A stretch of 64,000 nt of DNA from Minisyncoccota bacterium (GCA_023137185.1 JAGLPS010000006.1:683-64682), one strand, 5' to 3'. Positions 4,545 through 53,720 are shown, counted from the stretch's first letter. Notes: generated by a model not told the origin, from the letters alone. Program-made: numbers and translations.

Positions 4545-4576
4545 CTTGGAAGCTCGGCTTCCAAGTGTGGTGTAAT
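4545..4576 (+). repeat. P1 repeat family copy 1: palindrome cttggaagctcggcttccaag followed by gtggtgtaat (possible -10-like element), upstream of the 4678 gene
   Basis: 8 loci in the window share the 8+3+8 palindrome ttggaagc-tcg-gcttccaa and the adjacent gtggtgtaat motif. Confidence 0.6.
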
Positions 4577-4677
4577 GTGCATACTATCCGCATCATTTGG
4601 CTTTTTGTAATGTTGTGATAAGGTTTGACTTATACAAGCAGTTCTTTGAAGTTAACAAATCAAAAAGGAGGTGAGAG

Positions 4678-5442
4678 ATGGAGAAAAAAAGGTTAAAAAT
4701 TTTTATTTCCTGCGCTTTAGGAGCAGGAATAGGAACAATCGTAGCATTGGGAGTTGACCAATATTTTTGCTGGATAGGATTTTTCGTGGGAGGGCTTGTA
4801 GGTTATTTATCCTATGAGTTCAATACTGTTATTGAAGCAAGCCAAAAAACTTGGCGTAAAGTAACTGAATGGAAACCGGACAAAGAATTATGGAGATTAA
4901 AATTTGAGCTTGCGTGGTGGCAATTTTGCATGATAATAACATTCGCCACATTAACAATGCTAATCTCTTTTATCGTTTTTTGTTTGGTTACACCTTTGGA
5001 GATGATAAAACTTTTTCTACTCACTATGATTATTTGGGGAATGATAATTTTAATGTTTACTGTTTTTATTATCATTCCAAACCTATTTGTAGAAAGCAAA
5101 AAATCTTATACTATTGATGAAATTAATAACATTAAAAAGCTTAATCCTTTTAACGTCTATTGTTGCTGTTTGCCTAAAAGATTTTGGTGGTACTTGAAAA
5201 AAACACCGACTGCCGCAATATGGATATGGTATTGTCGTATCGCCGCGGCAAAATTCGTCAAAACGGTTTTTGTTTTGATCCATTCTGACATCCGTTTACT
5301 GTGCGGAACTGACGCGGCAATTGGAGCCGTAATAGGATATTTCACAGGCAATGTTATTATAGGAATACTTGCCGGCGGAATAATCGGAGTTGTAAATTAC
5401 GAACTCATCTCCAAGCGTTTTTTACGTCTCGAGCGTACATAA
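4678..5442 (+). CDS. Multi-pass integral membrane protein, function unknown
   Basis: 254 aa, ~7 hydrophobic segments; strong SD aaaggaggtgagag 6 nt before ATG. Confidence 0.6.
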   Translation: MEKKRLKIFISCALGAGIGTIVALGVDQYFCWIGFFVGGLVGYLSYEFNTVIEASQKTWRKVTEWKPDKELWRLKFELAWWQFCMIITFATLTMLISFIVFCLVTPLEMIKLFLLTMIIWGMIILMFTVFIIIPNLFVESKKSYTIDEINNIKKLNPFNVYCCCLPKRFWWYLKKTPTAAIWIWYCRIAAAKFVKTVFVLIHSDIRLLCGTDAAIGAVIGYFTGNVIIGILAGGIIGVVNYELISKRFLRLERT

Positions 5443-5452
5443 CAAAAAAAAC

Positions 5453-5504
5453 AAAAGCCAGCGATTTATTTAGATAAAAAAATCTAAAGCTCGCTGGCTT
5501 TTTC
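5453..5504 (+). terminator. Intrinsic terminator for the membrane-protein gene
   Basis: Long hairpin agccagcga...tcgctggct followed by ttttt, 10 nt after the stop. Confidence 0.55.
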
Positions 5505-5507
5505 TTT

Positions 5508-5568
5508 AACTTGGAAGCTCTAACTTGGAAGCTCGGCTTCCAAGTGGGAGCCTTAAAACGTGGTGTAA
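5508..5568 (+). repeat. P1 repeat family copy 2 (tandem half-unit plus full unit, ...ccttaaaacgtggtgtaat)
   Basis: aacttggaagctctaacttggaagctcggcttccaag...gtggtgtaat. Confidence 0.6.
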
Positions 5569-5605
5569 TTTGTAATTTATAAAATTACTATTTTTTAATT
5601 ATATA

Positions 5606-5639: not shown

Positions 5640-5960
5640 AGATAATTAAGGAGCTAGCCATCCTATTTTTTTCATAAAAGAGCTGATTTCACAAGACGAC
5701 ATAAAACAGGCCACTCCGTCCATCCCTCGCCCCGTGCCCAAATTATTAAGGGCAAAAGGGCGAGGTATTGGCGGAGCGGCACCATGGCTGTTTTTTTGGA
5801 AGAAGAAGCAGCCTCCGCCGCTCCAAATCCATTTGTCTCTCATCCCGGCAGCAGAGCTGCGGGGATGAGAGACACCCAATAAAAAGAGGTGCCAATCCAC
5901 AGCGCGCGCACAACTCGCGCACATCCTCTTTTTTTCTTTTACCTTCAATGAGCTCAAGGA
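5640..5960. ncRNA. Candidate structured RNA (GC-rich, multi-hairpin) between pyrE stop and the terminator; class not recognisable by eye
   Basis: Locally GC-rich in an AT-rich genome. Nested long stems (tctctcatccc..gggatgagaga, ggagcggc..gccgctcc, cctcgccc..gggcgagg). Only low-complexity Cys-rich ORFs overlap it. Confidence 0.25.
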
Positions 5961-10028: not shown

Positions 10029-10125
10029 TTAAAATCTTTCCTTTCGTTAGTTCCTGCCTATTTATGTAAACGAACTGTGATTCCTTTTAGGTAGTAACAT
10101 AAAAATAACAAAAAGCCAAATGGGT

Positions 10126-10185
10126 TTGGAAGCCGTAAACTTGGAAGCTCGGCTTCCAAATGAAAGTTCCAAAATGTGGTGTAAT
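10126..10185 (+). repeat. P1 repeat family copy 3
   Basis: ggaagccgtaaacttggaagctcggcttccaa...aaaatgtggtgtaat. Confidence 0.6.
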
Positions 10186-10210
10186 TTTTTCTGTACACAA
10201 ACCCATACAC

Positions 10211-10245
10211 AAAACACCCCCGCCAACTGTTGGCGGGGGTGTTTC
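10211..10245 (-). terminator. Intrinsic terminator of csp
   Basis: acacccccgcc-aactgtt-ggcgggggtgt followed by U-run in minus orientation. Confidence 0.55.
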
Positions 10246-10256
10246 TGCATTGCGAT

Positions 10257-10457
10257 TTACGCTTTGCTGACCTTGACTGCGTTCGGTCCCTTTGGACTGT
10301 CTGCAACTTCGAAAGTCACTTTGTCACCTTCGCGAAGTTCGTTGAACGTAACGTCAACGAGCTCATTTGAGTGGAAAAAGAGATCTTTTTCCTGTCCTTC
10401 GCATTTGATGAACCCGAAACCCTTATCGGTGAGTCGAGCAATTGTTCCTTCTGACAT
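10257..10457 (-). CDS. csp: Cold-shock protein (CspA family)
   Basis: 66 aa; KGFGFI, FFHSNEL, GDKVTFEV motifs; long AT-rich 5' leader typical of csp. Confidence 0.9.
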   Translation of the reverse strand: MSEGTIARLTDKGFGFIKCEGQEKDLFFHSNELVDVTFNELREGDKVTFEVADSPKGPNAVKVSKA

Positions 10458-10626
10458 TGTTGATATGTATGAAGAGCGAATAAAAAATCAAACAGTATGC
10501 CGAAGGTCGAGACTCGATCTTTTCTCTACTGGATCAGCACTGAATTGACAAAAGAGATCATATCATATCTCAATTAATTGTCAACGTTTTTTGTACACTA
10601 TCATAGGGTTAGTGACATTTCAGCCC

Positions 10627-12027
10627 TCAAAAAAATTTAGCCCCTATTACCATCACAGCAAAGTATATGAAAAAAATTGAAATCAAAACCATAGCCAGAT
10701 TAGTAAACCAGCTAGGCCTCAAGGCTTTCGGCAACTTCGTATTGTTTATATAAATAAGAAATGGAGTATAAATTGCCATAGTCATACCTCCAAGCACAGC
10801 CGAGATAACAAGCCACGTCAAAGGCTGTTTAGCTGGCAATAAAATAGCGCCAATGGCCACAATCAATATTATAGCGGTATAGTAAATTTTGCTAAGAGAA
10901 ATACCTTTGAACCATTTAAGTTTAGAAGCAAGTGGTCCTACACGCGAATTGGTGTAGAGAATATCCGAAATCATACGGGTCAAAGCATCTATGACAGTCC
11001 ACATAACAGAAAAGAGCATAAGCGAGGCCATAACCAAAAATAATTTATAGCCAAACACGCCCCATTGCTGGCCAAAAATATTAGCCTGCGCCACCGCCAC
11101 ATCCCAACCCTCTGGCACAATACCCAAAGGGGTCAAAACAGCGTGAGCATTCACGCTTAGCAAAAACAAAGTTATAAAACCAAGCAACAGGAAAATAAGC
11201 CCTTGGTCAATCCGTATATATTTCATCCAACCGCGCCATCTTTTAAGATTTTCTTCCGTCATTTCAAAAGTAAATCCTGTGGCAGCGACAGATTCTTCAC
11301 GACCTGTGATGGGATTAACCACGCGGCCAATATATTCACCCATACCGACCTGCTTGTCGCGGTACCACAAAGAAGTGCATAGATTCAACATACCGCCAGC
11401 TCCGGCAAAAACCACAGCTCCCAACAAAACATTTATATCCACACCTTCTGGAATAAAACCGAAACTAAATACCCCTTTAACACCTTCGGCTAGCTGCGCC
11501 CAACTTAAATTGAAAAAGCTAATAACAACGAGTAACGCGAAAAAAGTCGGCACAATTACCTTAAGCGTTTTTTCCAGTATGTTGTAGGCTATCTTGCCGG
11601 AAAAAGTCAATAACAAAACCAGTCCCAATACTGTCCAAGACCAGCCGAGATGCGTCCCGAAACCAAATAATTCAGCTAAAGCGGCGCCTATCGCGCTAGC
11701 CCAACCCGGCCAGATATAAAGAAGTAAAGCGGCAAAAAACCAAAAAACAGGCGACCATTTTATTACCCGCGCGCTTGTGGTAAAAAACCCCTCTCCCGTA
11801 GCGGCGGAATGCCTGGCGACTTCTTGATTGATAAAATACTGGGCGCTAATACCAAGCAAAGCCAGCCAAAGAAGCCCTAATCCGTGTTTAGCAATAAGAT
11901 GCGGCCACAAAATAAGCTCGCCGGTTCCGATAGCTAAACCCATAACCACTACCCCCACTCCCAAAGCCTTAGACCAATGTGGCGGCTTAGGCAAATCTCG
12001 AGTTTCAAGAGGTGGAAATTTATCCAT
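10627..12027 (-). CDS. Nramp-like (MntH-related) divalent metal transporter, ~11 TM
   Basis: 466 aa; polytopic; N-terminal GLAIGTGELILWPH..GLLWLALLG..QYFINQEVARHSAATGEG resembles Nramp family TM1-3. Confidence 0.45.
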   Translation of the reverse strand: MDKFPPLETRDLPKPPHWSKALGVGVVVMGLAIGTGELILWPHLIAKHGLGLLWLALLGISAQYFINQEVARHSAATGEGFFTTSARVIKWSPVFWFFAALLLYIWPGWASAIGAALAELFGFGTHLGWSWTVLGLVLLLTFSGKIAYNILEKTLKVIVPTFFALLVVISFFNLSWAQLAEGVKGVFSFGFIPEGVDINVLLGAVVFAGAGGMLNLCTSLWYRDKQVGMGEYIGRVVNPITGREESVAATGFTFEMTEENLKRWRGWMKYIRIDQGLIFLLLGFITLFLLSVNAHAVLTPLGIVPEGWDVAVAQANIFGQQWGVFGYKLFLVMASLMLFSVMWTVIDALTRMISDILYTNSRVGPLASKLKWFKGISLSKIYYTAIILIVAIGAILLPAKQPLTWLVISAVLGGMTMAIYTPFLIYINNTKLPKALRPSWFTNLAMVLISIFFIYFAVMVIGAKFF

Positions 12028-12579: not shown

Positions 12580-12670
12580 AATTTTAATACGAATTAATCG
12601 TTTAACTTATTACTTCGCGACACATCTCTATTCTAACAAAAAAAGTCTGAACAAATAACCTATCTGCCGA

Positions 12671-12700
12671 GCCCCTGCGGGGCTCGGCAGACGGTTTACA
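12671..12700. repeat. GC hairpin tctgccgagcccc-tgc-ggggctcggcaga (copy 1; identical copy at 14108-14137)
   Basis: 13-bp perfect stem, two identical copies flanking element B plus the two permease-half genes. Confidence 0.6.
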
Positions 12701-12799
12701 ACATATATTTTGGTATCGACTTATAGTTTCTATCGCGAGGGACTACATTTATTGTAATTGTGGAGAATGCCCCGTCGGCTTGCCCTTAATAATCCGGGC

Positions 12800-13092
12800 A
12801 GGCAGCGGGGATGAATCCGCAAGTATAAAGAAGCGTCGGCGGAGCCGACACCTCTACAACAAAGTTTGCCCCGATGCCTCGCCTAATACCTCGCCGAGGT
12901 ACTCCGAGGGAACAGCTTGCCCCCACACCTGTTTTCCCGTGGTATTTTGTCACCTAAGCCGATGTATTCATAGTATCGGAAAGCACCAGCCATACTTTTT
13001 ACAATTACATTATCCTTGAAAATACTGTGACAACGGGAAAACAGGTGTGGGGGTTTGTTGCGGGAATAGGACGAGGCTAAACTTTATTAAGG
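12800..13092. repeat. Structured element B: inverted partner of element A, carrying an extra ~125-nt insertion with a 20-bp stem
   Basis: Plus strand here is approximately the reverse complement of 4132-4312. Shared blocks ggggatgaatccgcaa, gtcggcggagccgac, caacaaagttt, gatgcctcgcct, cctcgccgagg, gggaataggacgagg. Insertion cccccacacctgttttcccg...cgggaaaacaggtgtggggg. The terminal 27 nt overlap the stop of the 13077 gene. Confidence 0.5.
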
Positions 13093-13583: not shown

Positions 13584-14023
13584 TATATGAACGCAAGCGT
13601 AAGAGTGATAAATATAGCGACCATTAAAGCGGACACGAAACTGACAATATTTCTTGCAATGGCGAATTTTTTCCCGAGTATCAGTAATTCAGCGGGAAGT
13701 TGGATAACACCTACTGTAACCCACGTGAGAATAAAAGCGGTTACCGCCGTAAGACTTACACCTTGTTGCAAAAGCTCTCCGCCAATAATATAGCTTGTTA
13801 TAGGACTCCCGCCAGAAATACTCCCGAAGAGCGCTCCCGCCAGTGAATCTAAAATAGTATTACCTGAAAAAACGCGATAAAAAATGTCCTTAGACAGTAC
13901 CGCTTGTAACCAACTAACAAGAAAAAGTGTCCCAATGAGAATAGGAATTACCTGAATAAACGAACCTAATGTTTTTAAAAACGCTTTTTTATAAGAATGA
14001 GAAAAAAGCATACATTTAATCAT
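13583..14023 (-). CDS. Putative permease half (DUF318/COG0701-like), N-terminal half
   Basis: 146 aa, 4 TM, GSISGGSPITSYIIGGELL motif; stop/start overlap with the next gene. Confidence 0.4.
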   Translation of the reverse strand: MIKCMLFSHSYKKAFLKTLGSFIQVIPILIGTLFLVSWLQAVLSKDIFYRVFSGNTILDSLAGALFGSISGGSPITSYIIGGELLQQGVSLTAVTAFILTWVTVGVIQLPAELLILGKKFAIARNIVSFVSALMVAIFITLTLAFI

Positions 14024-14107
14024 ATCAGGGATTTAAACATTAGTTCATAAATATCAATTTATTAGAAACTTTAAGCTATGTTGAAAAGTTATTTTCGTCC
14101 GTGAATT

Positions 14108-14137
14108 GTCTGCCGAGCCCCTGCGGGGCTCGGCAGA
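14108..14137. repeat. GC hairpin tctgccgagcccc-tgc-ggggctcggcaga (copy 2)
   Basis: identical to 12671-12700. Confidence 0.6.
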
Positions 14138-14175
14138 CAATTCACAACACACAAAGGCCTCGCCTTTGTATTCTT

Positions 14176-14556
14176 CTAACTCATACAAATGAGGTAAACG
14201 CCCAAAAGTCCCACGATAACCATAACTATTCTAAAGCGCGCGATTTTATCTTTTAAAATAGCGGCAGTTATCTTTTGCGTTGCCTCCGGAAAAGCAATCC
14301 TTGTAATTCCTTTAAAGGTACAGACCCAGCCAGCAATAGTAATAACGATTCTCCAATCAGCAACCCAAAGGTTGTGCGATATTATCGTTGCCAAACCCAG
14401 AAACAACAAAACCCAGCCAGAAAGAAAAACAAAATTCTTGTCCTTGTGTATCTTAAGCAATTCATCCAAAAACGAATTTCCTCCCAATAGATAAACAACC
14501 GCCGTTATCACCGAAAACCACCCCCAAAATCGCGCCAAAAATATAGTAATTTCCAT
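14176..14556 (-). CDS. Small integral membrane protein (4 TM), unknown function
   Basis: 126 aa, four hydrophobic helices. Confidence 0.5.
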   Translation of the reverse strand: MEITIFLARFWGWFSVITAVVYLLGGNSFLDELLKIHKDKNFVFLSGWVLLFLGLATIISHNLWVADWRIVITIAGWVCTFKGITRIAFPEATQKITAAILKDKIARFRIVMVIVGLLGVYLICMS

Positions 14557-14658
14557 AATTAAAAATTAAAGTATTCAATGCTTATAAACAGTTTTTAGAA
14601 CTTTCTTATACCAAATTATACATAAATTATGGTTCTTGCTAAAAGTTAAAAACCGCTT

Positions 14659-14844
14659 TTAAGCGGTTTTTGTTTTGGAAGTGTTATCGTAAAATACTTT
14701 TCTTTGGTCTTCGTTTGCGCGCCTTGCCGCCTCTGTAATTATTTTCTTTTTTTCCTTACTTGACGCTTCAAGGAAAAAACGCGAAAACTTGCTTGAGAGT
14801 TTCCCTTTAACTTCTCTCTTGAATATAAAATTAAATAGTTTCAT
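14659..14844 (-). CDS. Small basic hypothetical protein, overlaps the zeta-like gene end by 14 nt
   Basis: 61 aa, lysine-rich; weak. Confidence 0.25.
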   Translation of the reverse strand: MKLFNFIFKREVKGKLSSKFSRFFLEASSKEKKKIITEAARRANEDQRKVFYDNTSKTKTA

Positions 14845-15562
14845 GACTTTTCAGCAACTCTTCTAATTGATTTTTAGTGTATTTGAATTTTATACAGTTG
14901 TCAATTTTATTGATATTTGCCTTAAACTGAATTGTCTGGTGTTTAAAATCTTTTTCCACAAGATAAATTGTAATATTTTTACCAAAATGCTCTTTTAGTT
15001 TGTTTACGACATCCCTTGCTGCGATAAACTGCTCGATGAAAGTCTCTTTTAGTATCCTACGACCATCTTTTTCTTCACGGCGTATGGTAAATTCCCATGC
15101 AATAACCGGATCTTGATAAATATAAAAAATAAAAATAGTTCGGTTTTTATCTAGGGAACGTTGAATATTATCTTTTGCTTTTTCCAAATTTGAAAGAGTA
15201 CCATCAAGAATGAAGTTTTGTTCGTTCGTTAGTACACTATCGTGAATTTTTTCCACAGCAATTGAAACTGCTCCTTGAAATAAATAAGCGTTGCCACCGG
15301 TATAGCCGGGTAATTTGTTTCTAATTTCATCAGCGTCAATACGTGCTACATGACTTTTGTTATCATCCCAGAGATTTTTAAGCAATCCTTTTGAAAATTC
15401 CGTCTTCCCCGCTCCGGGAGAACCCGCCATAAAAACAGATACTGGCGTGGTATCCGGAAATATTTTCTCGGGGTCGGCAAATTCTTGAACGATTTTTTTA
15501 AAGTTTTCCCTCTTTTTTACAAACTTAATTGCTGCTCTTTTAATATCTTCTTCAGATAACAT
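14831..15562 (-). CDS. Zeta-toxin-like P-loop kinase (PF06414-like)
   Basis: 243 aa; Walker A GSPGAGKT, DADEIR, overall zeta/UNAG-kinase-like layout; leaderless start 7 nt after a TAGAAT -10. Confidence 0.55.
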   Translation of the reverse strand: MLSEEDIKRAAIKFVKKRENFKKIVQEFADPEKIFPDTTPVSVFMAGSPGAGKTEFSKGLLKNLWDDNKSHVARIDADEIRNKLPGYTGGNAYLFQGAVSIAVEKIHDSVLTNEQNFILDGTLSNLEKAKDNIQRSLDKNRTIFIFYIYQDPVIAWEFTIRREEKDGRRILKETFIEQFIAARDVVNKLKEHFGKNITIYLVEKDFKHQTIQFKANINKIDNCIKFKYTKNQLEELLKSHETI

Positions 15563-15570
15563 AAACTTAA

Positions 15571-15665
15571 TTCTACACCACTTCCCCGCCTACGCGCACA
15601 CAAGTCTAAATTTTAGGGAATTAAGACAAATTATCGAGAAATTATCGAGGTTCAACCTCGATAAA
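15571..15665 (-). promoter_or_regulatory. Duplicated ~95-nt upstream region (copy 1) with -10-like gtggtgTAGAAT directly before a leaderless ATG, plus palindrome ttatcgag-N4-ttatcgaggttcaacctcgataa
   Basis: Near-identical to 16939-17045, which precedes the NYN gene. Palindromic core atcgaggtt-c-aacctcgat is also present at 47.8 kb and 54.6 kb. Confidence 0.5.
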
Positions 15666-15724
15666 CAGACCGTGAGCTTGTCGAATGTTTCCCTCTAATA
15701 TATATAAAATGATACACTACAATT

Positions 15725-16099
15725 ATGAGTTCAACTGATAAAAAGATTGAAGATTTGGGGTTAAAAATTACTGAATTAACTGAAGCACTCAAAATGATTT
15801 CTGAACGACAAAATTCTCAGTACACTGATATTATGTTAGCTCTTAAAGATATCAAGGACATCCAAAAAGAAATGTCTGAAGAATCCATTCCTCTTTCAGA
15901 TGATAAATTATATGATGAAGCAAAAGAGCTTGTGATTAAATATCAAATAGCTTCAGTTTCATTTCTCCAGCGTATACTACGGATTGGATATTCTCGCGTA
16001 GCTTTTGTTATGGATAAACTAGAAGAGAATGGTGTCATAGGTCATGCAAACGGTTCAGAACCGCACGCGGTTTTGATAAAAAATGAGGACGAAGATTAG
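15725..16099 (+). CDS. Stand-alone FtsK-gamma (winged-helix, KOPS-binding-like) domain protein with coiled-coil N-terminus
   Basis: 124 aa; C-terminal ELVIKYQIASVSFLQRILRIGYSRVAFVMDKLEENGVI matches FtsK gamma domain consensus. Confidence 0.65.
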   Translation: MSSTDKKIEDLGLKITELTEALKMISERQNSQYTDIMLALKDIKDIQKEMSEESIPLSDDKLYDEAKELVIKYQIASVSFLQRILRIGYSRVAFVMDKLEENGVIGHANGSEPHAVLIKNEDED

Positions 16100-16298
16100 T
16101 AAGAATTCTTCAAGGTCGAACCTTGAAATTCTTAACTCCCCCGCTAAACGCTTTGTGGAGGATGGCGGTTCGGAGGGTTTGGAGGTGGGATTTTTAAGTT
16201 ATGCACAAATTTATTGACTTTATTGACTTTTAGTACTCACTCGCTATACTAAGAGCGTCTTTTAGTTTTATCCATAAACTGAAAGGGTTTTACATCCA

Positions 16299-16335
16299 AG
16301 GGCAGCCTTCCTCGCGGAGGGCTGCTTTTTATTTT
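16299..16335. terminator. Hairpin ggcagcc..ggctgc + T-run between the convergent FtsK-gamma and NYN genes
   Basis: stem-loop followed by tttttatttt on the plus strand. Confidence 0.45.
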
Positions 16336-16931
16336 AATTTCTTGCCTTCCGTTTTACTCTTTTCTACTCTGTGCTTCAATTCACGACCCCAAATATCCTC
16401 TGATACTTGTAATATATCAGTATATCCATCCCCTCCCGTTCTTAATTCTTCAGATATATTGTTCTTGGAAGAGTAGATATATACATTTTTTCCGTCTCTC
16501 CTCAAATAAGTTACTAACGCGAGAAAATCTGAATCTCCGGAGAACAAAATAGCTGTTGTGTATTTGTCTTTATGGTGAATAGCATCAATGGTCATTTCCA
16601 CATCCATATTCCCTTTTTCTTCAGTGATGTCTCCGTTATCCGAATGTACAGTGATCCGCTTCAATTCCTTTTTACGAACGTTAATACCAAGACCCTTGCG
16701 AAGATATGTAAAAAACTTGTGTTTCCCGTCCAATAAATAGTCGCGTGTTCCTTCAGCCGGATACGCTGTATAATAAAAAATCTCAATAGCTTGAGCATCA
16801 TTATTCTTTTTGAGAAATTTTTTCAATTTTTCAAAATCAAAAAAATGTCCTCTAACTTTCTGCGCGCTCCAGAGATTTGAAGCGTCAATGAAAACATAAA
16901 CAATCTTTTGTTTTTCTTTATTATTTTTCAT
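16329..16931 (-). CDS. NYN-domain (LabA/PIN-like) putative ribonuclease
   Basis: 200 aa; VYVFIDASNL, DVEMTIDAI, ILFSGDSDF motifs of NYN domain. Confidence 0.7.
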   Translation of the reverse strand: MKNNKEKQKIVYVFIDASNLWSAQKVRGHFFDFEKLKKFLKKNNDAQAIEIFYYTAYPAEGTRDYLLDGKHKFFTYLRKGLGINVRKKELKRITVHSDNGDITEEKGNMDVEMTIDAIHHKDKYTTAILFSGDSDFLALVTYLRRDGKNVYIYSSKNNISEELRTGGDGYTDILQVSEDIWGRELKHRVEKSKTEGKKLK

Positions 16932-16938
16932 AATGCTA

Positions 16939-17045
16939 TTCTACACCACTTCCCCGCCTACGCGCGCACAAGTCTAAATTTTAGGGAATTAAGGCAAATT
17001 ATCGAGAAATTATCGAGGTTCAACCTCGATAATTTCTCGATAAAC
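16939..17045 (-). promoter_or_regulatory. Duplicated upstream region (copy 2) containing a perfect 45-nt palindrome ttatcgagaaattatcgaggtt-c-aacctcgataatttctcgataa (16999-17043) and the leaderless promoter of the NYN gene
   Basis: direct sequence comparison with 15571-15665. Confidence 0.5.
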
Positions 17046-17050
17046 ACAAA

Positions 17051-17089
17051 CACCAAACACCTCAAATACACCATTTGAGGTGTTTGGTG
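17051..17089 (-). terminator. 17-bp perfect hairpin caccaaacacctcaaat-acacc-atttgaggtgtttggtg, terminator of the 17107 gene
   Basis: followed by U-rich tract in minus orientation. Confidence 0.55.
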
Positions 17090-17106
17090 CAAAAGTGGTA
17101 ATTCTG

Positions 17107-17682
17107 CTAGATTTTGGTGTAAAAAACCGATTTCCCGGTGTTCCCGACCTGTTTTATGCGATTTTCTGCTTCAAGAATATCTAAATATCTTACCGCTGTG
17201 GCGCTTGATATTCTAAGTAGTTTTTGAATATCTTTGTTTGTTATTTGAGGCTTTGTCTCAAAAAGAGCTACAACCTTATCTAATTTTTTCCGTCTTCGTT
17301 CTTGAATTTTTGCCCGCGCTTTCACAAGTAATCTTTGAACAATATTCGGATCGGTTTTGTAGATAATTTGTGTTTGAACTTGAGATTGCTGTGGTTGTGG
17401 CTCTGATATTGGCATAGGTTCTTCTGAAACAGAAGAATGTGTGGGAGCAGGTTCTGACACAGTTTGTTCAACCACTTCTTCATCCGCAAGGACTGCTGTT
17501 TCTTGTGGTTGTTCTATTGGTGCTGTGGTTTGAACTTCAGAAATGGTCTCTGGTTGAATTTTCTCAGTTGCTTCTTCAATAGGGTCTGCCGACGGCTCAA
17601 CAATAGGTTCAGTAGCCACAGGTTCTACTGGTACAGTAGTTTCTTCTACTATGTCTTGAGTTTTATTTTCTTCTGGTGGCAT
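17107..17682 (-). CDS. Protein with disordered acidic Pro/Glu-rich N-terminus and C-terminal winged HTH
   Basis: 191 aa; C-terminal KDIQKLLRISSATAVRYLDILEAENRIKQVG is HTH-like; 11 nt after the hsdS stop. Confidence 0.45.
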   Translation of the reverse strand: MPPEENKTQDIVEETTVPVEPVATEPIVEPSADPIEEATEKIQPETISEVQTTAPIEQPQETAVLADEEVVEQTVSEPAPTHSSVSEEPMPISEPQPQQSQVQTQIIYKTDPNIVQRLLVKARAKIQERRRKKLDKVVALFETKPQITNKDIQKLLRISSATAVRYLDILEAENRIKQVGNTGKSVFYTKI

Positions 17683-17693
17683 ATTGTCTTGAA

Positions 17694-19136: not shown

Positions 19137-19142
19137 ATTATT

Positions 19143-20948: not shown

Positions 20949-20970
20949 GAGTGATTAAATTAAAATTAAA

Positions 20971-21096
20971 TTATCTCCAAAACCCCAACCCATTCTCCCT
21001 CCCCCACTTCTCAAAAGCAAAAGCGATCTCGTCTAAGTCGTCAAACTTGCGCGCTTCTTGAACATCTGATTTTTTTATAATTGAAATTTGAGGCAT
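20971..21096 (-). other. Junction repeat 2 with chimeric 41-aa mini-ORF MPQISIIKKSDVQEARKFDDLDEIAFAFEKWGRENGLGFWR (hsdS N-terminus fused to hsdM C-terminus)
   Basis: Start 2 nt after the stop of the upstream cassette gene. Its stop lies 22 nt before the OLD ATG, reproducing the native hsdM-stop/hsdS-start spacing. Confidence 0.6.
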
Positions 21097-21098
21097 AG

Positions 21099-22528: not shown

Positions 22529-22567
22529 AAAAATATTTTAGATTAATAAATTAATTTTTCCAAAAAT

Positions 22568-22879: not shown

Positions 22880-22907
22880 ATTATTTTAAATTAAAAAATT
22901 AATAAAT

Positions 22908-23039: not shown

Positions 23040-23040
23040 T

Positions 23041-27889: not shown

Positions 27890-27890
27890 A

Positions 27891-37730: not shown

Positions 37731-37779
37731 AACTTGGGAGCTCCAACTTGGAAGCCGAGCTTCCAAGTGTGGTGTAATT
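37731..37779 (+). repeat. P1 repeat family copy 4
   Basis: aacttgggagctccaacttggaagccgagcttccaagtgtggtgtaat. Confidence 0.6.
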
Positions 37780-37909
37780 TAGGTTTTTGGACAAATAGTG
37801 AAATTAAATTCTTGTGTAATCTATGGGCGAAGACCTTTAAATATAAAGTTTACCGTCCGCGAACACCCCGCCGTAAGCGGACGGGGTGTTCTGGTTGCTT
37901 GCAATAAAT

Positions 37910-41773: not shown

Positions 41774-41922
41774 ACTTGGAAGCCGTAACTTGGAAGCTAA
41801 CTTGGAAGCTCGGCTTCCAAATAACGGCTTCCAAATAAGAGCCTTAAAATGTGGTGTAATATGTTTTTAACTTGGAAGCCGAGCTTCCAAGTCTGGTGTA
41901 GAGCTTCCAAGTGTGGTGTAAT
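41774..41922 (+). repeat. P1 repeat family copies 5a/5b (two tandem units, about 150 nt)
   Basis: cacttggaagccgtaacttggaagctaacttggaagctcggcttccaa...aaaatgtggtgtaat...cttggaagccgagcttccaag...agcttccaagtgtggtgtaat. Confidence 0.6.
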
Positions 41923-42056
41923 TTGTTACAAGGTCAAACCTTGTAACGTTGTGAGGATTCTCACCTCGTTTTTCCTCGTAAGGATATCTTAAATATGATT
42001 CCGCTAACAAAAAAAGGGCGTTCGCTGTTTGCGAAAGCCCTTTATCATACATACTT

Positions 42057-46691: not shown

Positions 46692-46754
46692 AATACTAAC
46701 CTTACAACAAACACCCATACCTGTTTTGACATAGAGTATTTTATCGTTTATATA

Positions 46755-46862
46755 CTCGGAAGCTCTTGGAAGCGGAGCTTCCAAGAGCTTCCGAGTAACA
46801 AGTAAAAACATATTACACCACATTTTGAGGCTCCCATTTGGAAGCCGAGCTTCCAAGTTGGC
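46755..46862 (-). repeat. P1 repeat family copy 6, including a perfect 19+3+19 palindrome ctcggaagctcttggaagc-gga-gcttccaagagcttccgag
   Basis: attacaccacatttt...tttggaagccgagcttccaag. Confidence 0.6.
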
Positions 46863-46974
46863 GAAGATTGTTAAACTCGCGTAAAAAAATTTGACAAAAA
46901 AGAATACCTATGCCAATCTTGTGGAAGATAAAAGATAATCTGGCTCTTTAAAACCATTAAAAAGGAGAGTTGCG

Positions 46975-47421
46975 ATGGATACTGTAATTGATAATTTGGA
47001 TACTTTAAATCTGGATTTAAAAGATGAGAAAACGGTAAAATACCTGATTGGACGCTGTAAGTCAGTGGAAGATTTCAAGAAGCTGAATGATCAAACTTTA
47101 CCTGGTTCAGAGGCCAAGAAAAAGGTCAGGAAGGCGTGGGGTGAGTTCATTCTGCCTGAAATTGAAAAACGAATCTCAAATTGCAAGTCAGTGGAGAGCC
47201 TTGAGAGGCTAGAAAGCCAAACTCCATCTGGTTCAGAAGCCCAGAAAAAAATCAGGGAGGCGCGGGAAAAGTTCATTACCATGCAAATCTCAAATTGCAA
47301 GTTGGTGGAGAATTTTAAGAGGCTGATTGATCAAACTTCACCTGGTTCAGAAGCCTGGAGAAAAGTCAGGGAGGCGTGGCAAACATTCGTAAAATCTGAA
47401 ATTCAGGAAACTATCGTTTAG
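46975..47421 (+). CDS. Repeat protein paralog A (three ~37-aa repeats ISNCKSVEDFKKL-DQT-PGSEA-KKVR-AW-EFI-PEIEKR)
   Basis: 148 aa; conserved ~90-nt upstream region with TTGACA and aaaaggagag SD; conserved terminator 47441-47477. Confidence 0.5.
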   Translation: MDTVIDNLDTLNLDLKDEKTVKYLIGRCKSVEDFKKLNDQTLPGSEAKKKVRKAWGEFILPEIEKRISNCKSVESLERLESQTPSGSEAQKKIREAREKFITMQISNCKLVENFKRLIDQTSPGSEAWRKVREAWQTFVKSEIQETIV

Positions 47422-47523
47422 ACTCTTAATTAAAACTTGAAAGCGGGCAAGGATGTAATTCTGCCCGCTTTTTTTGACGAAAAGATTTGATGAAAAGACC
47501 TCTCCCCACCTAAATCTTTCCCA

Positions 47524-47571
47524 TCCTTTCTTTCTCTAACCTAATCTCTAATTCGCGCGAATTAGAGATTA
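47524..47571. repeat. Near-perfect 48-nt palindrome ctaatctctaattcgcgcgaattagagattag with flanks, tail of the paralog cassette (copy also at 54468-54505)
   Basis: seen directly. Confidence 0.6.
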
Positions 47572-47699
47572 GATTAGAGAGTTGCTATCAATGTTTTTTG
47601 TTATTGGAAGCGGCCAGAATACCCCGTCCGCTTGCGGCGGGGATGAATGGTCGCGCAGTAATCTGGGCGAGCGAAGCTCGCTCCTATCTAACAAAGTTT

Positions 47700-47760: not shown

Positions 47761-47798
47761 TTATATCGAGGTTTATATCGAGGTTGAACCTCGATAAT
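47761..47798. repeat. P2 palindrome family copy c (tatatcgaggtt x2 - g - aacctcgata)
   Basis: core atcgaggtt-N-aacctcgat shared with 15630-15664, 16999-17043 and 54553-54599. Confidence 0.55.
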
Positions 47799-48781: not shown

Positions 48782-49558
48782 ATGGATAATAAATTCACTA
48801 TACCTGGCGCAATAGTAATCGCGGGAGTATTGATTGCCGGAGCTATTTTACTCACTACCAATAAGGGCACTGAAAGTTCTTCAATTACTACGACAAAAGA
48901 AACAGACGAGACTGCCATTGCTGTTCGCGAGGTAAATTCACAGGACCACATATTGGGAAACCCCTCCGCAGACGCGATAGTTATTGAATTTTCTGATACG
49001 GAATGTCCATTCTGTGTGCAATTCCACACTACAATGCATACCGTAATGGATAATCTCGGAAAAGATGGAAAAGTTGCATGGGTATACCGTCATTTTCCTA
49101 TTCCACAATTGCATCCAAACGCGCCGAAAGAAGCAGAAGCGCTTGAGTGCGCCGCAGAACTTGGAGGAAATGAAAAATTCTGGGAATATACCGACACAAT
49201 TTATCGCATTACTCCGTCAAACAACGGACTCGACCTCGCGGAACTTCCCAAAATTGCCAAGACGATTGGTTTAGATACCACTCAATTTCAAGACTGCCTT
49301 GAAAGCGGAAAACACGCCGAAAGAGTACAGAGGGATTATCAGGATGCTATGACTGCGGGCGGAACAGGAAGTCCATTTTCAGTAATCATCTTGAAACAAA
49401 AACTCTCCCCCGCGTCCAAAAACACACTTGACTCAGTCGCCTCACAGCTTCCGAACAAGCTTCTTATCATCTCCTCCGACCAAAAGAGAATCTCAATAAG
49501 CGGCGCGCTTCCATACGAAATTTTTAGTGAGATTCTTAATGTAGCGCTCACTCGTTAG
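48782..49558 (+). CDS. Membrane-anchored DsbA-like thiol-disulfide oxidoreductase
   Basis: 258 aa; N-terminal TM; thioredoxin CPFC active site in DTECPFCVQFH. Confidence 0.7.
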   Translation: MDNKFTIPGAIVIAGVLIAGAILLTTNKGTESSSITTTKETDETAIAVREVNSQDHILGNPSADAIVIEFSDTECPFCVQFHTTMHTVMDNLGKDGKVAWVYRHFPIPQLHPNAPKEAEALECAAELGGNEKFWEYTDTIYRITPSNNGLDLAELPKIAKTIGLDTTQFQDCLESGKHAERVQRDYQDAMTAGGTGSPFSVIILKQKLSPASKNTLDSVASQLPNKLLIISSDQKRISISGALPYEIFSEILNVALTR

Positions 49559-52500
49559 TATTCTTTAAGAATATCCTCTTCAAAATCAATTATTCCTTGC
49601 AGGTTCTTTTTGTAGTGGCTTATGTCAGGAAATTCAAGACACATAATTTTTTTGTATACCGCGCTGATAAGCGCTTTTGTCCTTTGGAACAATTCATCAT
49701 CTATTTCAAGAGAAAGTTCTTGAAACGTATTGCGTGACGGTTCCAAAAATTCAATAACTCCATTCCGCACTGAATAGTTGTGAAAATCCCGCGATTTCTC
49801 AACAAGAATTTTATAGAACGCAAGCTGGCGAGCGTATCCTCGTAGACGCAATTTTTCATAAACCGTTGTTCCTTTCCAATCGGAGTAGACCCGCCCTGTT
49901 TTAAAGTCGTGCACAATTATTTCTTTATTGGAAACAATCATTTTGTCTATTTTTCCGGAAAGCGGCACGTCATTTTCAACTACTCCTTGCCGTCTGAAAT
50001 TCACTTCTATAAGATGGTCGGAGTGAAATTTTTCTTTTTTGCGCGCGTAAAAAAGTGTAAGCGCTTTTTCGCCTCGTTGCTGTTCAATTCTAAAATCACG
50101 CGCGGAGAGACGTTCAGCAGAAAGAGCTTTCGTAAAAAAAGTGATGAATTTTTTAAGAGTGGGAATTTTTCCGTTTTTCCTTAAACTCCGATACAGTATT
50201 TCAACAGCTTTATGCATCGCCGTACCAAAAGCATTAGATGGAGTTTTCGCCTGCGGGAAACGCAACAGGTTTTGTTCAAGGAAAAATTGAGGGCCGCCAT
50301 GAAAGATATTAAGATAGTTATTCAAATGAGTGACACTCATCGTGTAATTTTCCAAAAGCGGCTTCAAAAGAGCTTTCTCGTCTTTGACAAAGACAGGCTG
50401 ATAAAATCTTTCTGGAGGACTAATTTGCCCTCCTTGTATCGCGCGTATGGAGGAGACGGAAAATGAAGAAGAAAGGAAACCAAGCGGAAACGTTTCTCTT
50501 CCGCGACTGTCGAAAGTGTGAGAGCAGAGATAGAGCATTCTTTTCGCGCGCGTCATCGCGACATAAAACAGGCGGATATAATCGTCATCGCTATCGGGAG
50601 ACGGAACTATTGAGAGATTTTTAGGAAAAGAAATCTTAAGTGCTCTTTCTTTTCCCGCCCATACCGACTCAAGGCAGTGAAGAACAAATACCGCTTCAAA
50701 CTCAAGCCCCTTTGCCTTGTGAGCAGTAAGAAGGGTAACCGCGTCTTTTCCCGTTACAAAAGGACTCTTGTCAGTAAGAATAATTCCGTTTTTCTGATGA
50801 AGGTCAACAAAAGAAATCAGGTCGTCAATTTTCAAAGGCAGTCCTTTTTTGTGTTCTCGCAGGGCGTCAATAAATACTCGGAGGCTTGAAAGGAAGACAA
50901 GATATTCAGCCCGATGTTCGGAAAACTTTTGAGAAGAAAAATAGTATTCTCTGAAAGGACTTGTAAATTTTTTTGTTTTTTTAGCCCGTAGGGGTTTTTC
51001 ATCGGCAGATTTTGGCAAAAGGGAGATATGAGAGCCAATTAGATCGTCGAGAATATATTCGAGCGGTTCTGAAAGAGAACGAACTGCGATATTAAGAAGA
51101 AACCGCGCGACTTCCTGAACTTTCGCGTTACGCGAGGCACGCATCACTTCAAGCCAGCGTTTCTCCTCTTTGTAAGCAGTAAGTGAAATTTCCCATATAG
51201 TTTCCCTTTGAATCCCCCAGAATGGGAAACTTAAAATTTCCGGAAGCAAATTATCCGCTTCTTGTATATTATTGCGTCCCACTGATGAAAGAAAGCGGGC
51301 AATGGTTATGAGCTCTTTAATATGGCGTTCCTTCAAGACATCTTGTTGGCGTTCATAGCTAACAGGAATTTTTCGGGCATATAGATACGGAGCAAGACGT
51401 TCAAGAAAAACGTGCTTCCGCCCGATAACAGCTATATTTTTAAAGGGCGTTCCTTTTGCGGAAAGACGCTGTATTTCTTCGGCAACAAATGTATACTCCT
51501 CCGCGCTTCCTTCAAATGCGGAGTACGCGATTTTTCCTTTTGCGGACGTAGAAGAAATAAGTGCTTTACTAATTGACGGAATTATATTTTCGAGCCGTTC
51601 TTCCCCTTTCTTGATAACAGAAAGGGACGCGTCAAGAATATCCGGAGTTGAACGATAATTGAGCATTAACGTAATAATACGGGGGTCGCGGACACTCCCA
51701 ATAAAACGAACAAAATTTCCCATTTCCGCTCCTTGAAATTTAAAAATTGCCTGGTCATCATCTCCTACCACCATCACATTAGGTCTTCCTTCGTTAACCG
51801 GCGCGTCAATCAAAAGAGAAAGAAGCCTCATTTGGGCATCGTTCGTATCTTGAAATTCATCTACAAGAATATACTGATATGTTTCCTGCAATTCAGAAAG
51901 AAGCGACTGATTTTTTGTAAACGCCGAGATCGTCTGGAGAAGCATATCATCAAAGTCATAGTAACCATTACAGTACATCTTTTCATTGTAATCGCGATAT
52001 ACCTCCTGCAAAGCGTAGAGTATGGGTAATGAGAGAAAGTTTTTTAGCACTCGTTTTTCCTCTTTATCCTTGCTTGTCCATGAACTTTTCCACGCGGATA
52101 GCGCTTGCGTACCGCTATGTTCCGCTTCGGCTAACGCTTTTGCAAGTGAGTGAAAAAACACATATTCATACAGAGGAACTTTTCCAAGCCCGAAATCGCG
52201 TGTCTTTTTAAAAGGAGGGATGTGTTTTTTAAGATAACTGATGTCTTTCTTAGTAATACGAGCAGAAAGATGTTTTGTTAAAAAATTATTGATTTTTTTA
52301 AAAGACTTCTCATTTTCCGAAAGTAAAACTTTAAAATCTTCCGGGGTCAAGCCTGCTTTTTTTAAATAACCAATGGCCGAATGTACCGCTGGAAGATAAA
52401 TATAACCCTGTTCGGGGTGTTCTTTTTTAATGGGGTTGTCGCGAGAAAGATTATCAAAAAGAGTTTGAAGAACTTCGCGCTGAACAATTACATCTGCCGG

Positions 52501-52980
52501 AGAAAGGTTCGCGCCATCATAAAAATATTCAGGGAAACGCTCAATTATATCCACACTAAAATTATGGAACGTATGAATCGGCACGCGATACGCGCTGTCT
52601 CCGATAAGCCCATATAAACGCTTGCGCATCGCAACAGCTCCAGAATCAGTAAAGGTAAGACAAAGCACATTTTGCGGTCGCGCGTCAGTGGAGCAAATAA
52701 TATTCGCAACCCGTAGACTTAAAAGCTCCGTCTTTCCGCTTCCAGGTCCCGCAATCACAACGACAGGTCCTTCTATTGCGTTGACTGCCTCTTTTTGAGC
52801 TTTGTTGAGAGCTAAAAATCGCTTTTTAAATTTGGTCTCAAAGGAAGAGGGCATTTGAGAGTGATTATACCTTTCGTAGACAGATTGGCATACCCCCACA
52901 CCTGTCTTGACACAGTATCTTGTCGTTTCTGTACTTGGAATCGCCAACTTGGAAGCTCGGCTTCCAAGTTGGCGATTCAA
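49555..52980 (-). CDS. UvrD/PcrA-family helicase with C-terminal PD-(D/E)xK (RecB/AddA-like) nuclease domain; true start probably about 52860 (MPSSFETKF...)
   Basis: 1141 aa; helicase motif I AGPGSGKTE, motif II VDEFQDT, and a C-terminal ...VHDFKTG...Y..QLAFYKIL nuclease-like region. Confidence 0.75.
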   Translation of the reverse strand: MNRQLGSRASKLAIPSTETTRYCVKTGVGVCQSVYERYNHSQMPSSFETKFKKRFLALNKAQKEAVNAIEGPVVVIAGPGSGKTELLSLRVANIICSTDARPQNVLCLTFTDSGAVAMRKRLYGLIGDSAYRVPIHTFHNFSVDIIERFPEYFYDGANLSPADVIVQREVLQTLFDNLSRDNPIKKEHPEQGYIYLPAVHSAIGYLKKAGLTPEDFKVLLSENEKSFKKINNFLTKHLSARITKKDISYLKKHIPPFKKTRDFGLGKVPLYEYVFFHSLAKALAEAEHSGTQALSAWKSSWTSKDKEEKRVLKNFLSLPILYALQEVYRDYNEKMYCNGYYDFDDMLLQTISAFTKNQSLLSELQETYQYILVDEFQDTNDAQMRLLSLLIDAPVNEGRPNVMVVGDDDQAIFKFQGAEMGNFVRFIGSVRDPRIITLMLNYRSTPDILDASLSVIKKGEERLENIIPSISKALISSTSAKGKIAYSAFEGSAEEYTFVAEEIQRLSAKGTPFKNIAVIGRKHVFLERLAPYLYARKIPVSYERQQDVLKERHIKELITIARFLSSVGRNNIQEADNLLPEILSFPFWGIQRETIWEISLTAYKEEKRWLEVMRASRNAKVQEVARFLLNIAVRSLSEPLEYILDDLIGSHISLLPKSADEKPLRAKKTKKFTSPFREYYFSSQKFSEHRAEYLVFLSSLRVFIDALREHKKGLPLKIDDLISFVDLHQKNGIILTDKSPFVTGKDAVTLLTAHKAKGLEFEAVFVLHCLESVWAGKERALKISFPKNLSIVPSPDSDDDYIRLFYVAMTRAKRMLYLCSHTFDSRGRETFPLGFLSSSFSVSSIRAIQGGQISPPERFYQPVFVKDEKALLKPLLENYTMSVTHLNNYLNIFHGGPQFFLEQNLLRFPQAKTPSNAFGTAMHKAVEILYRSLRKNGKIPTLKKFITFFTKALSAERLSARDFRIEQQRGEKALTLFYARKKEKFHSDHLIEVNFRRQGVVENDVPLSGKIDKMIVSNKEIIVHDFKTGRVYSDWKGTTVYEKLRLRGYARQLAFYKILVEKSRDFHNYSVRNGVIEFLEPSRNTFQELSLEIDDELFQRTKALISAVYKKIMCLEFPDISHYKKNLQGIIDFEEDILKEY
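52933..52978. repeat. P1 repeat family copy 7 (extended perfect palindrome gaatcgccaacttggaagctcggcttccaagttggcgattc)
   Basis: seen directly. Confidence 0.6.
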
Positions 52981-53055
52981 GTTAAAAATTTGACAAAAAG
53001 GATATCTATGCTATTTTTGTGGAAGATAAATAATAATCAAGTCCTTTAAAAACCA

Positions 53056-53540
53056 TTGAAAAGGAGAGTCGCGATGGATACTGTAATTGGTAATTTGGAT
53101 ACTTTGAATCTGGATTTAGAAGATGAGAAAACGATAAAATACCTGATTGGACGTTGTAAGTCAGAGGAGGATTTTAGGAGACTGGATGGGCAAACTCCGT
53201 CTGGTTCAGAAGCCGAGAAAAAAGTCAGGGAGGCGTGGGATGAGTTCATTCTGCCTGAAATTGAGGAGCGAATCTCAAATTGTAAGTCAGTAGAGGATTT
53301 CAAGGAGCTAGATAGACAAACTCCATCTGGTTTAGAAGCTGAGAGAAAAGTAAGGGAGGCAAGGGAAAAGTTCTTTCTGCTTGAAATTGAAAACTGCTTG
53401 AACTTGAAAAGAAAATCTCAAATTGCAAGTCAGTGGAGGACTTTGAGAGGCTAGAAAGCCAAACTCCGCTTAATCCAGAAGCCAGGAAAAAGGTCAGGGA
53501 GGCGTGGCAAGCATTCGTAAAATCTGAAATTCAGAAAACC
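53056..53540 (+). pseudogene. Repeat protein paralog B, disrupted by a 17-nt insertion/duplication (ctgcttgaacttgaaaa) near 53394 causing a frameshift
   Basis: ORF 53056-53454 terminates early; the downstream frame encodes the conserved C-terminus ...KISNCKSVEDFERLESQTPLNPEARKKVREAWQAFVKSEIQKTIV. Confidence 0.5.
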
Positions 53541-53670
53541 ATCGTTTAGACTCTTAATTAAAACTCAAAAGCGGGCAAGGATATAATCCTGCCCGCTTTT
53601 TATAATCAGAAAACTTTGCAGGTCAAGACAAGAAAGCACTTCGTTTTGGACACTGAGTGTCCAAAAACCC

Positions 53671-53720
53671 AAATTACACCACACTTGGAAGTTGAGCTTC
53701 CAAGTTGGTCGCTTCCAAGA
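53671..53720 (-). repeat. P1 repeat family copy 8
   Basis: attacaccacacttggaagttgagcttccaagttgg. Confidence 0.55.

Follow-up and report, generated by a model that had tools for sequence, protein, structure and literature searches.

The question raised by the window, a stretch of 64,000 nt from a Minisyncoccota bacterium (GCA_023137185.1 JAGLPS010000006.1:683-64682), is what the short palindromes scattered between its genes are for. These palindromes, termed P1, are mostly accompanied by a decamer, GTGGTGTAAT, that looks like an extended -10 promoter element. A preliminary description offered three readings: elements like repetitive extragenic palindromes (REPs) or miniature inverted-repeat transposable elements (MITEs), protein-binding sites, and mobile promoter modules. 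The window is part of a 77-kb contig of a metagenome-assembled genome (MAG) of the Patescibacteria, or Candidate Phyla Radiation (CPR). P1 is most readily understood as the form taken in this lineage by a hairpin repeat widespread in Patescibacteria, and its copies are, in our analysis, probably clusters of hairpins like REPs or bacterial interspersed mosaic elements (BIMEs), belonging to a CPR-wide system that resembles that of the REP-associated tyrosine transposases (RAYTs).

The P1 core, TTGGAAGCYSRGCTTCCAA, is a palindrome of 19 nt that consists of TTGGAAGC, a three-nucleotide loop (nnn) and GCTTCCAA, and it is extended to 21-23 nt by AC..GT. Ten cores were found in the window, spread over eight loci, against an expectation of 0.02 from 100 shuffles; eight are exact and two carry one mismatch (Table 1). 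No further core was found in the other 13 kb of the contig (both ends). The half-site TTGGAAGC occurred 29 times, and 26 of these fell within the eight P1 loci; the three elsewhere compare with about two expected. GTGGTGTAAT was found exactly eight times in the window (chance expectation with at most one mismatch, 2.2), each time on one flank of a palindrome, from which it was separated by 3 nt in copies 1, 4, 5b and 8 and by 17-31 nt in copies 2, 3, 5a and 6. Copy 7 was the only locus that lacked it. Thus the preliminary description was right in counting at least eight copies, in placing the decamer beside the palindrome and in its starts (4545, 5508, 10126, 37731, 41774, 46755, 52933 and 53671), which agree with the element starts mapped here.

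According to both the open reading frame (ORF) analysis and the gene calls of the collection, all eight loci are intergenic, as had been claimed, and this is far from chance because about 86% of the window is coding. The only exception is a doubtful call of a 142-aa ORF (10120-10548), which starts within copy 3, overlaps the terminator of the adjacent gene and has no Pfam match. The low-GC defence island at 14-30 kb was free of P1 copies. When the Rfam covariance models were run, no match was obtained at P1, either at the gathering threshold or at E<=1.

P1 was found to be built of half-sites of 8-10 nt, direct and inverted, in nested or tandem arrangement; the nested palindromes arise from direct half-sites stacked 5' of the core and inverted ones 3' of it. 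The patterns ACTTGGAAGCnnnGCTTCCAAGT and ATTACACCAC stand for the hairpin and the polar arm, ATTACACCAC being GTGGTGTAAT read on the opposite strand. Written with the arm first, a unit has the order ATTACACCAC; AC or an insert such as ATTTTRAGGCTCCCAY; TTGGAAGC, 3-nt loop and GCTTCCAA; GTT; and inverted half-sites (GCTTCCAAGTTAAA and similar). The orientation of the loop (CGA or TCG) flips independently of the flanks. The GGCTCCC and TTGGGAGCTCC modules are similar to a GGGAGC variant of the hairpin, and the 22-nt extension of copy 4 is common to copy 8 (88% identity over 58 nt). On single-strand folding the units reached z values of -2.8 to -10, and two of them formed near-perfect hairpins of 20-23 pairs. 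These are the left unit of copy 6, with perfect 20-nt arms, and copy 7, with 19 perfect pairs, a bulge and four more, so that the long perfect arms previously noted were also recovered. With no empty sites available for comparison, target duplications and terminal inverted repeats (TIRs) were not evident on inspection of the flanks; the elements are nested palindromes that are not bounded by TIRs.

Table 1. Position, composition and setting of the P1 copies in the window, and loci of in-frame hairpins in other CPR genomes (ssDNA, single-stranded DNA; RNR, ribonucleotide reductase).
Element	Coordinates	Strand	Composition	GTGGTGTAAT (strand)	ssDNA dG; z	Setting
Copy 1	4542..4576	+	core 4546-4564 (loop TCG), then directly arm GTGTGGTGTAAT 4565-4576	4567 (+)	-11.5; -6.9	divergent gap: class II RNR gene (1647-3923, -) / 254-aa gene (4678-5442, +)
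Copy 2	5508..5569	+	direct half-site 5511-5518, core 5525-5543, degenerate outer arm GGGAGCCTTAAAA, GTGGTGTAAT 5560-5569	5560 (+)		convergent gap, past terminator of 254-aa gene
Copy 3	10126..10185	+	half-site 10126, core 10141-10159, degenerate arm, box 10176-10185	10176 (+)		minus-strand gene on either side; box aimed into terminator of upstream gene (10627-12027)
Copy 4	37731..37800	+	TTGGGAGCTCC variant half-site, core 37748-37766 (loop CGA), box 37769-37778, 22-nt extension	37769 (+)		subtilase gene / GH63-like gene, both minus strand
Copy 5	41774..41922	+	tandem, nested array		-37.8; -10.1	DeoC-like gene / ADK-like gene, both minus strand
Copy 5a	41774-41860		three direct half-sites, core 41802-41820, two inverted half-sites, box 41851	41851 (+)		
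Copy 5b	41869-41922		core 41872-41890, GTCTGGTGTAG variant arm, one more half-site, box 41913	41913 (+)		
Copy 6	46754..46864	-	left unit: perfect 20-nt-arm nested palindrome 46754-46796, core 46766-46784 (1 mismatch)		-24.4; -9.2 (46754-46796)	two plus-strand genes; ~30 nt upstream of TTGACA promoter block of paralogue at 46975
Copy 6, right unit			ATTACACCAC 46812-46821, GGCTCCC module, core 46838-46856	46812 (-)		
Copy 7	52933..52982	.	symmetric nested palindrome, core 52949-52967; GTGGTGTAAT arm missing		-24.9; -9.9	divergent gap: AddA-like helicase gene (49555-52854, -) / paralogue at 53074 (+)
Copy 8	53651..53723	-	shared extension, ATTACACCAC 53673-53682, core 53685-53703 (1 mismatch, loop TGA), inverted half-site 53711	53673 (-)		paralogues 53074-53454 / 53887-54351, both plus strand
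In-frame hairpins, other CPR genomes	L016 3406, L072 7242, L046 1280, L003 1505, L082 697, L067 568, L039 552, L015 1861, L024 1030/1058					

Where the neighbouring genes are co-directional (copies 3, 4, 5, 6 and 8), the order is upstream gene, its terminator, ATTACACCAC, hairpin and next promoter, and GTGGTGTAAT is antisense in all five. The preliminary description had most copies other than copy 1 pointing into gene ends or antisense. The orientation bias is only suggestive because copies 6 and 8 were possibly duplicated. Copies 6-8 lie upstream of three paralogous genes that have a common promoter block, and so these copies are in part segmental duplicates and not all independent insertions; the three-paralogue region is a segmental duplication that carried its P1 copies along. 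The paralogues themselves (46975-47421, 53074-53454 and 53887-54351) are small, have no Pfam domain and contain internal 126-nt (42-aa) repeats. Their blocks (46947-47490, 53046-53618 and 53859-54420) have a common promoter of the form TTGACA-16-TATTTT with TG, and palindromes common to the downstream regions lie at 47533-47573 and 54464-54504.

The same hairpin was found in other CPR genomes. The pattern TTGGAAGCnnnGCTTCCAA was scanned against 185,579 species genomes (one per species, 596 Gb), and at least 114 loci were obtained, with at least 48 CPR entries among the 80 matches listed with titles. The CPR hits include Saccharibacteria, Paceibacterota, Moranbacteria, Giovannonibacteria and Kaiserbacteria, frequently with several hits in a span of 8 kb; the AC...GT extension is conserved and further pairing is variable. 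By chance about 139 scattered singletons would be expected in 596 Gb, and the non-CPR hits resemble those. The CPR hairpin, given as ACTTGGAAGC, a 3-nt loop and GCTTCCAAGT, is thus strongly enriched in CPR genomes. A P1-specific 20-mer gave a single match in a metagenome scan, on a 1.2-kb contig from Hainich groundwater (L119), in which TTACACCACAC-TTGGAAGC-GAA-GCTTCCAA-GTGTGGTGTAA forms a perfect palindrome with 19-nt arms. Among 2.9 million viral contigs there were no matches for either pattern. The 19-nt palindrome was also seen in MAGs of DPANN archaea (Micrarchaeota, Aenigmatarchaeota and Woesearchaeota; L008, L011, L019, L057 and L064), in a number within chance. RAYT (K07491) genes have been reported in Pacearchaeales (preprint 10.64898/2026.05.13.725050), and the hairpin may be shared across domains with DPANN archaea.

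Part of the evidence for the RAYT-like reading comes from one gene around which the hairpin is arranged. In at least 12 divergent CPR genomes, the hairpin or a co-varying variant occupies four fixed places of a gene for an HUH/Y1 protein of ~210 aa, at ~-35, +181, +440 to +460 and +655 relative to the ATG. Proteins encoded at the hairpins belong to Pfam PF01797 Y1_Tnp (IS200-like) in L071, L102, L002, L061, L034, L025, L040, L056 and L055. The 5' hairpin supplies the -35 box (TTGGAA) and the spacer of a promoter with a 17-nt spacer, TGnTATAAT, 6-9 nt and the start codon, and the message is judged to be leaderless because the -10 box ends 6-9 nt before the ATG. Two internal hairpins are in frame and encode (Q)LGSxASK, while the fourth lies directly 3' of the stop codon. 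The hairpin-encoded peptide was present at one or both internal positions in 42 of the best 120 of at least 7,984 family clusters, and in the RAYT alignment internal hairpin 1 was missing from L102 and L061, which amounts to presence and absence at the same loop. Moreover, the hairpins vary together. A variant ACTTAGCGG-TGAAA-CCGCTAAGT is found at the upstream, first in-frame and post-stop positions of L031; ACTTGGGAGYTSAACTCCCAAGT occurs four times at the Y1 gene of L124; L125 and L002 have the variant ACTTGGGTGC...GCACCCAAGT; and L056 has the compensated pair TTGGACGC/GCGTCCAA (GGACGC/GCGTCC). Such concerted, structure-preserving change within each Y1 gene ties the hairpins to the gene's own product.

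The HUH (NPNHYHF) and Tyr (SxYVNLN) motifs were invariant in the alignment of the Y1 protein. In its AlphaFold model (pLDDT 80.7) the first hairpin-encoded loop was disordered. As shown by the fold search, the top match in the PDB was 4ER8_A, the E. coli RAYT bound to a REP hairpin (E 9e-6), followed by the TnpA proteins of IS608 and ISDra2; a sequence-profile search of the PDB with the Y1 alignment returned noise only. The family comprises at least 7,984 clusters at 90% identity, which are annotated as "transposase [Patescibacteria]" or, by the Joint Genome Institute, as RayT.

Beyond the Y1 gene, the CPR hairpin was found in frame in genes for ArgRS (three genomes), TopA, GyrB, an AddA-like helicase, a radical-SAM enzyme, a CCA-adding enzyme and a NeuB fusion, where it encodes LGSxASK or LEAxLPS. 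In ArgRS there are two sites, with reciprocal presence and absence of the hairpin segment between genomes. This behaviour is like that of the Rickettsia palindromic elements (RPEs), which also enter housekeeping ORFs in frame and add a short peptide. RPEs are 100-150 bp long, however, and to our knowledge have no known transposase, whereas the CPR unit is ~23 bp long and has a candidate enzyme, and the copies in the window are all intergenic.

From these patterns the hairpin appears to be the cognate DNA of a conserved, predicted RAYT-like HUH/Y1 enzyme of ~210 aa that acts on ssDNA. The hairpin would extrude when the DNA is single-stranded, for example on the lagging-strand template, and the Y1 enzyme would bind, cut and rejoin it. 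Copies could then spread or be homogenised as non-autonomous elements and pile into each other, giving nested arrays. The copies in the window would be passengers of a RAYT gene elsewhere in the genome; that gene is expected to be flanked by P1-type hairpins, with GCTTCCAAGTG(TG)GTRTAAT 6-9 nt before its ATG. The polar arm ATTACACCAC may derive, as a relic or a variant, from the outer stem and -10 box located 3' of the RAYT gene's 5' hairpin, and it would act at most as a weak outward promoter; any effect on neighbouring genes, such as insulation or 3'-end stabilisation, would be secondary. A wider proposal, plausible but tentative, is that Patescibacteria have an ancient pair of hairpin and RAYT-like enzyme that was kept largely by vertical descent. 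The enzyme gene would be built on four copies of its own target (one in the leaderless -35/spacer region, suggesting autoregulation, two as translated surface loops and one after the stop codon), and the ~23-bp hairpin would colonise intergenic DNA and, in frame, essential genes such as those for ArgRS, GyrB and TopA. On this view one half of the RAYT promoter would have been copied into P1 as its polar arm, and the family would be scattering promoter-like boxes through the genome. The literature searched held nothing relevant that ties RAYTs or REPINs to CPR, or on the P1 motif itself. The earlier suggestion of REP/MITE-like elements with a possible RAYT thus gains support from other CPR genomes, where the hairpin flanks and enters a Y1/HUH gene whose best fold match is 4ER8.

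The likeness to the REP/BIME and RAYT systems of Enterobacteria and Pseudomonas (4ER8), and to REPINs, is manifold. P1 consists of short stable palindromes, repeated as 10 cores within 64 kb and absent from the other 13 kb of the contig, which are extragenic at 8/8 loci in the window and form direct and inverted clusters; neither TIRs nor target duplications are evident. The presumed cognate HUH/Y1 gene is flanked by the hairpin on both sides in the at least 12 other CPR genomes, and its fold is closest to the E. coli RAYT. There are also differences. The foot of P1 is symmetric, ACTT...AAGT, and has a polar ATTACACCAC arm in this lineage. The CPR stem sequence is common to very distant lineages, whereas classical REPs are species-specific, and elsewhere the CPR hairpin enters ORFs. 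Unlike RAYT genes, the CPR Y1 gene has two in-frame internal hairpins and a 5' hairpin that serves as -35 box and spacer, and its protein is longer (~210 aa) and falls below the equivalog cutoff. With the IS200/IS605 elements (IS608 and ISDra2) the system has in common the HUH/Y1 fold, the hairpins at both gene ends, which the CPR enzyme would likewise recognise as ssDNA, and the expected strand polarity; it departs from them in that CPR hairpins occur dispersed apart from the gene too, that those on the left and right have the same sequence, and that there is no TnpB partner.

Several observations weigh against assigning P1 to such a system. In classical REPs the foot of the hairpin is preceded, at 0-2 nt, by a conserved tetranucleotide, GTAG, GTGG or CGTC (PMC6006769, PMC3733652), and this 5' GTAG/GTGG tag (PMC6006769) is absent from P1, whose 5' flank is (C)CAC or AAC and whose GTGG stands 3' of the hairpin. 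The best NCBIfam model for the Y1 protein, REP_Tyr_transpos (NF047646), scored 25-33 bits against an equivalog cutoff of 80, and the protein is therefore a distant relative of RAYTs and not an equivalog. Neither tblastn nor a profile search in six frames (window and both ends) detected a RAYT homologue on the 77-kb contig, and no Y1 gene or remnant is present there. The RAYT link in this genome is by analogy; none of the best 120 of the at least 7,984 family clusters bears the name of this MAG. Dispersal is not universal, for in L124 and L125 a stretch of ~14 kb showed hairpins nowhere but at the RAYT gene. The nearest relative on a long contig (P0123, with a 66% identical GH63-like protein on a 644-kb contig) showed no synteny and no hairpins in 21 kb. 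Finally, contigs of the same population (L116-L118, L121 and L122) were identical at P1 copies 1-3 and revealed no insertion polymorphism; the sole length difference among them, elsewhere on the contig, is a scaffold gap of Ns.

Could P1 instead be a mobile promoter, with GTGGTGTAAT as an extended -10 element that fires outward to give an mRNA (copy 1) or short antisense RNAs ending at the neighbour's bidirectional terminator? The box TGGTGTAAT (TGTAAT) is one base from the organism's own TGGTATAAT and from GTGGTATAAT, the box of the L071 RAYT promoter that the GTGGTGTAAT arm resembles. Strong hairpins follow 10-110 nt downstream of most boxes, with some same-strand T-runs (41951-41969 and 53600-53567); copy 1 precedes by 102 nt a gene that has a Shine-Dalgarno sequence, and a terminator on the same strand follows the box in L119. 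The Correia elements of Neisseria and other promoter-carrying MITEs are likewise intergenic and bear at one end a -10-like box from which outward reading is conceivable, but neither TIRs nor a TA duplication were evident in P1. The P1 box is, moreover, crippled by a G at -11, whereas the organism's own -10 boxes are TGGTATAAT or TAGAAT. It stands 19 nt from TTGGAA where it abuts the palindrome and farther in copies with an insert (19-21 nt for the spacer to TTGGAA), and no P1 copy passed a sigma-70 consensus scan; sigma-70 promoters have -35 and -10 hexamers 16-18 nt apart, with A at -11 and T at -7. It is antisense in 5/5 informative copies and missing from copy 7, and the sequence 3' of the boxes is not conserved except in copies 4 and 8. 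Elsewhere, in 273 hairpin flanks and across 114 loci of other genomes, a -10 box at 17-nt spacing was confined almost wholly to the Y1 gene. In L119 the same bases, GTGTGGTGTAA, are an arm of the palindrome, so that the promoter-like decamer is an outer hairpin arm in this relative. The P1 sequence GCTTCCAAGTGTGGTGTAAT and the L071 RAYT promoter GCTTCCAAGTGGTATAAT are separated only by a TG insertion and an A-to-G change, for which reason the P1 arm looks like a decayed RAYT 5' hairpin and promoter. The extended -10 likeness is real, as had been pointed out, and probably reflects this descent and not a present promoter function; that P1 copies are mobile promoters is quite improbable.

A different reading is that the palindromes are operators of a dimeric regulator of double-stranded DNA, or sites of a nucleoid protein, conserved in CPR, with the Y1 gene as one member of the regulon. 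Their dyad symmetry is perfect and distant lineages have the core in common, as with parS/ParB; at the Y1 promoter the palindrome overlaps with -35 box and spacer, where repressors classically bind; and several copies in the window (6-8) lie 20-100 nt upstream of promoters. Operators would not be expected in frame inside ArgRS, TopA, GyrB and similar genes, nor as nested or tandem stacks of half-sites or as post-stop sites, and the genes beside the window copies have no common function; the concerted change of all hairpins of one Y1 gene points to its own product. This explanation is thus unlikely, although the protein-binding sites of the preliminary description are compatible with the REP-like reading if the HUH protein is the putative binder. 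An action at the RNA level, as 3'-end stabiliser, terminator or insulator, would not exclude a REP origin, and such 3' roles are known for E. coli REPs. The stems are very stable, and in the five co-directional copies the element sits after the upstream terminator and before the next promoter. Against this, the hairpins are followed by no U-tract, the flanks have no T-runs, and no P1 core hairpin was listed by an intrinsic terminator scan. Efficient termination is also unlikely because essential genes of other CPR tolerate this hairpin within their ORFs, and an RNA-level role as the basis of P1 has little probability. Finally, TTGGAAGC could be a DNA uptake sequence (DUS) of the CPR competence machinery, paired as hairpins in the manner of the DUS terminators of Neisseria. 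The motif is common to CPR lineages, and CPR bacteria rely on imported nucleotides and carry competence genes. DUS and other uptake signal sequences (USS), however, are mostly single and dispersed through genes at about one per kb, and from genome to genome the hairpin variant changes together with the Y1 gene. With the half-sites confined to the P1 loci and the singles at chance level (3/29), identity with DUS/USS was rejected, and an uptake role must be regarded as extremely improbable.

CPR genomes are streamlined, at ~1 Mb, and are thought to be repeat-poor. If the REP-like reading is true, a REP-like population with a dedicated HUH enzyme would offer a new handle on their genome dynamics. 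It would also be a natural test of RAYT domestication, in which the gene and its promoter form one physical unit with a target whose sequence has persisted across very wide evolutionary separations. Some lineage-specific insertions in CPR proteins would be accounted for by hairpins that essential genes carry in frame; these hairpins would matter for gene calling and, since repeats break contigs, for MAG assembly as well. No account of a REP system whose sequence is conserved throughout a superphylum, and which enters proteins in the manner of RPEs, was found in the literature searched. The practical lesson for the window itself is a modest one, that annotators should label P1 copies neither as promoters nor as terminators.

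Other repeats were observed in the window. The defence island (14000-30700), with a low GC content (26-37%), contains genes for a zeta toxin (14831-15562), a NYN protein (16329-16931), a type I restriction-modification S subunit, an AAA_15/AbiEii-like ATPase, a ThsA-macro protein, an HSDR_N/N6_Mtase/Eco57I fusion and a DUF4143 ATPase. Upstream of the zeta-toxin and NYN genes lies a repeated block of 95 nt (15570-15664 and 16938-17032; 98% identity between the two copies), which ends in GTGGTGTAGAAT, 6-7 nt before the ATG, as a leaderless promoter; the earlier report of GTGGTGTAGAAT at these two genes was confirmed. The block holds a palindrome, ATTATCGAGGTTCAACCTCGATAAT, that forms a second family of four copies (15641-15665, 17009-17033, 47774-47798 and 54564-54588), which could be an operator or another repeat family; a similar sequence, CTGTCAAGGTTCAACCTTGACAG, adjoins a P1-type hairpin in another CPR MAG (L052). 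Repeated blocks of 59-94 nt (19079-19137, 21039-21097 and 22976-23034; 20964-21057, 22901-22994 and 25085-25178) recur along a series of consecutive genes on the minus strand of the island, at their 5' ends and in the sequence upstream; they suggest N-termini or leader cassettes in common, perhaps modules that can be shuffled.

The intergenic region 12766-13089 is linked by three inverted-repeat matches (34-45 nt, 73-92% complementary) with 4132-4256, upstream of the RNR gene, and 5725-5769, in the gap past copy 2; Rfam gave no match for this element. A GC-rich palindrome, TCTGCCGAGCCCCTGCGGGGCTCGGCAGA, occurs twice (12663-12703 and 14109-14149; 93% identical over 41 nt) and is probably a shared terminator. 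Furthermore, a TATAAT or TAGAAT box ends 6-9 nt before many start codons (e.g., 3923, 7777, 7903, 15562, 16931 and 44563), and other genes of the window have clear GGAGG Shine-Dalgarno sites. As boxes at this distance imply leaderless mRNAs, translation is initiated by mixed modes in this CPR genome.

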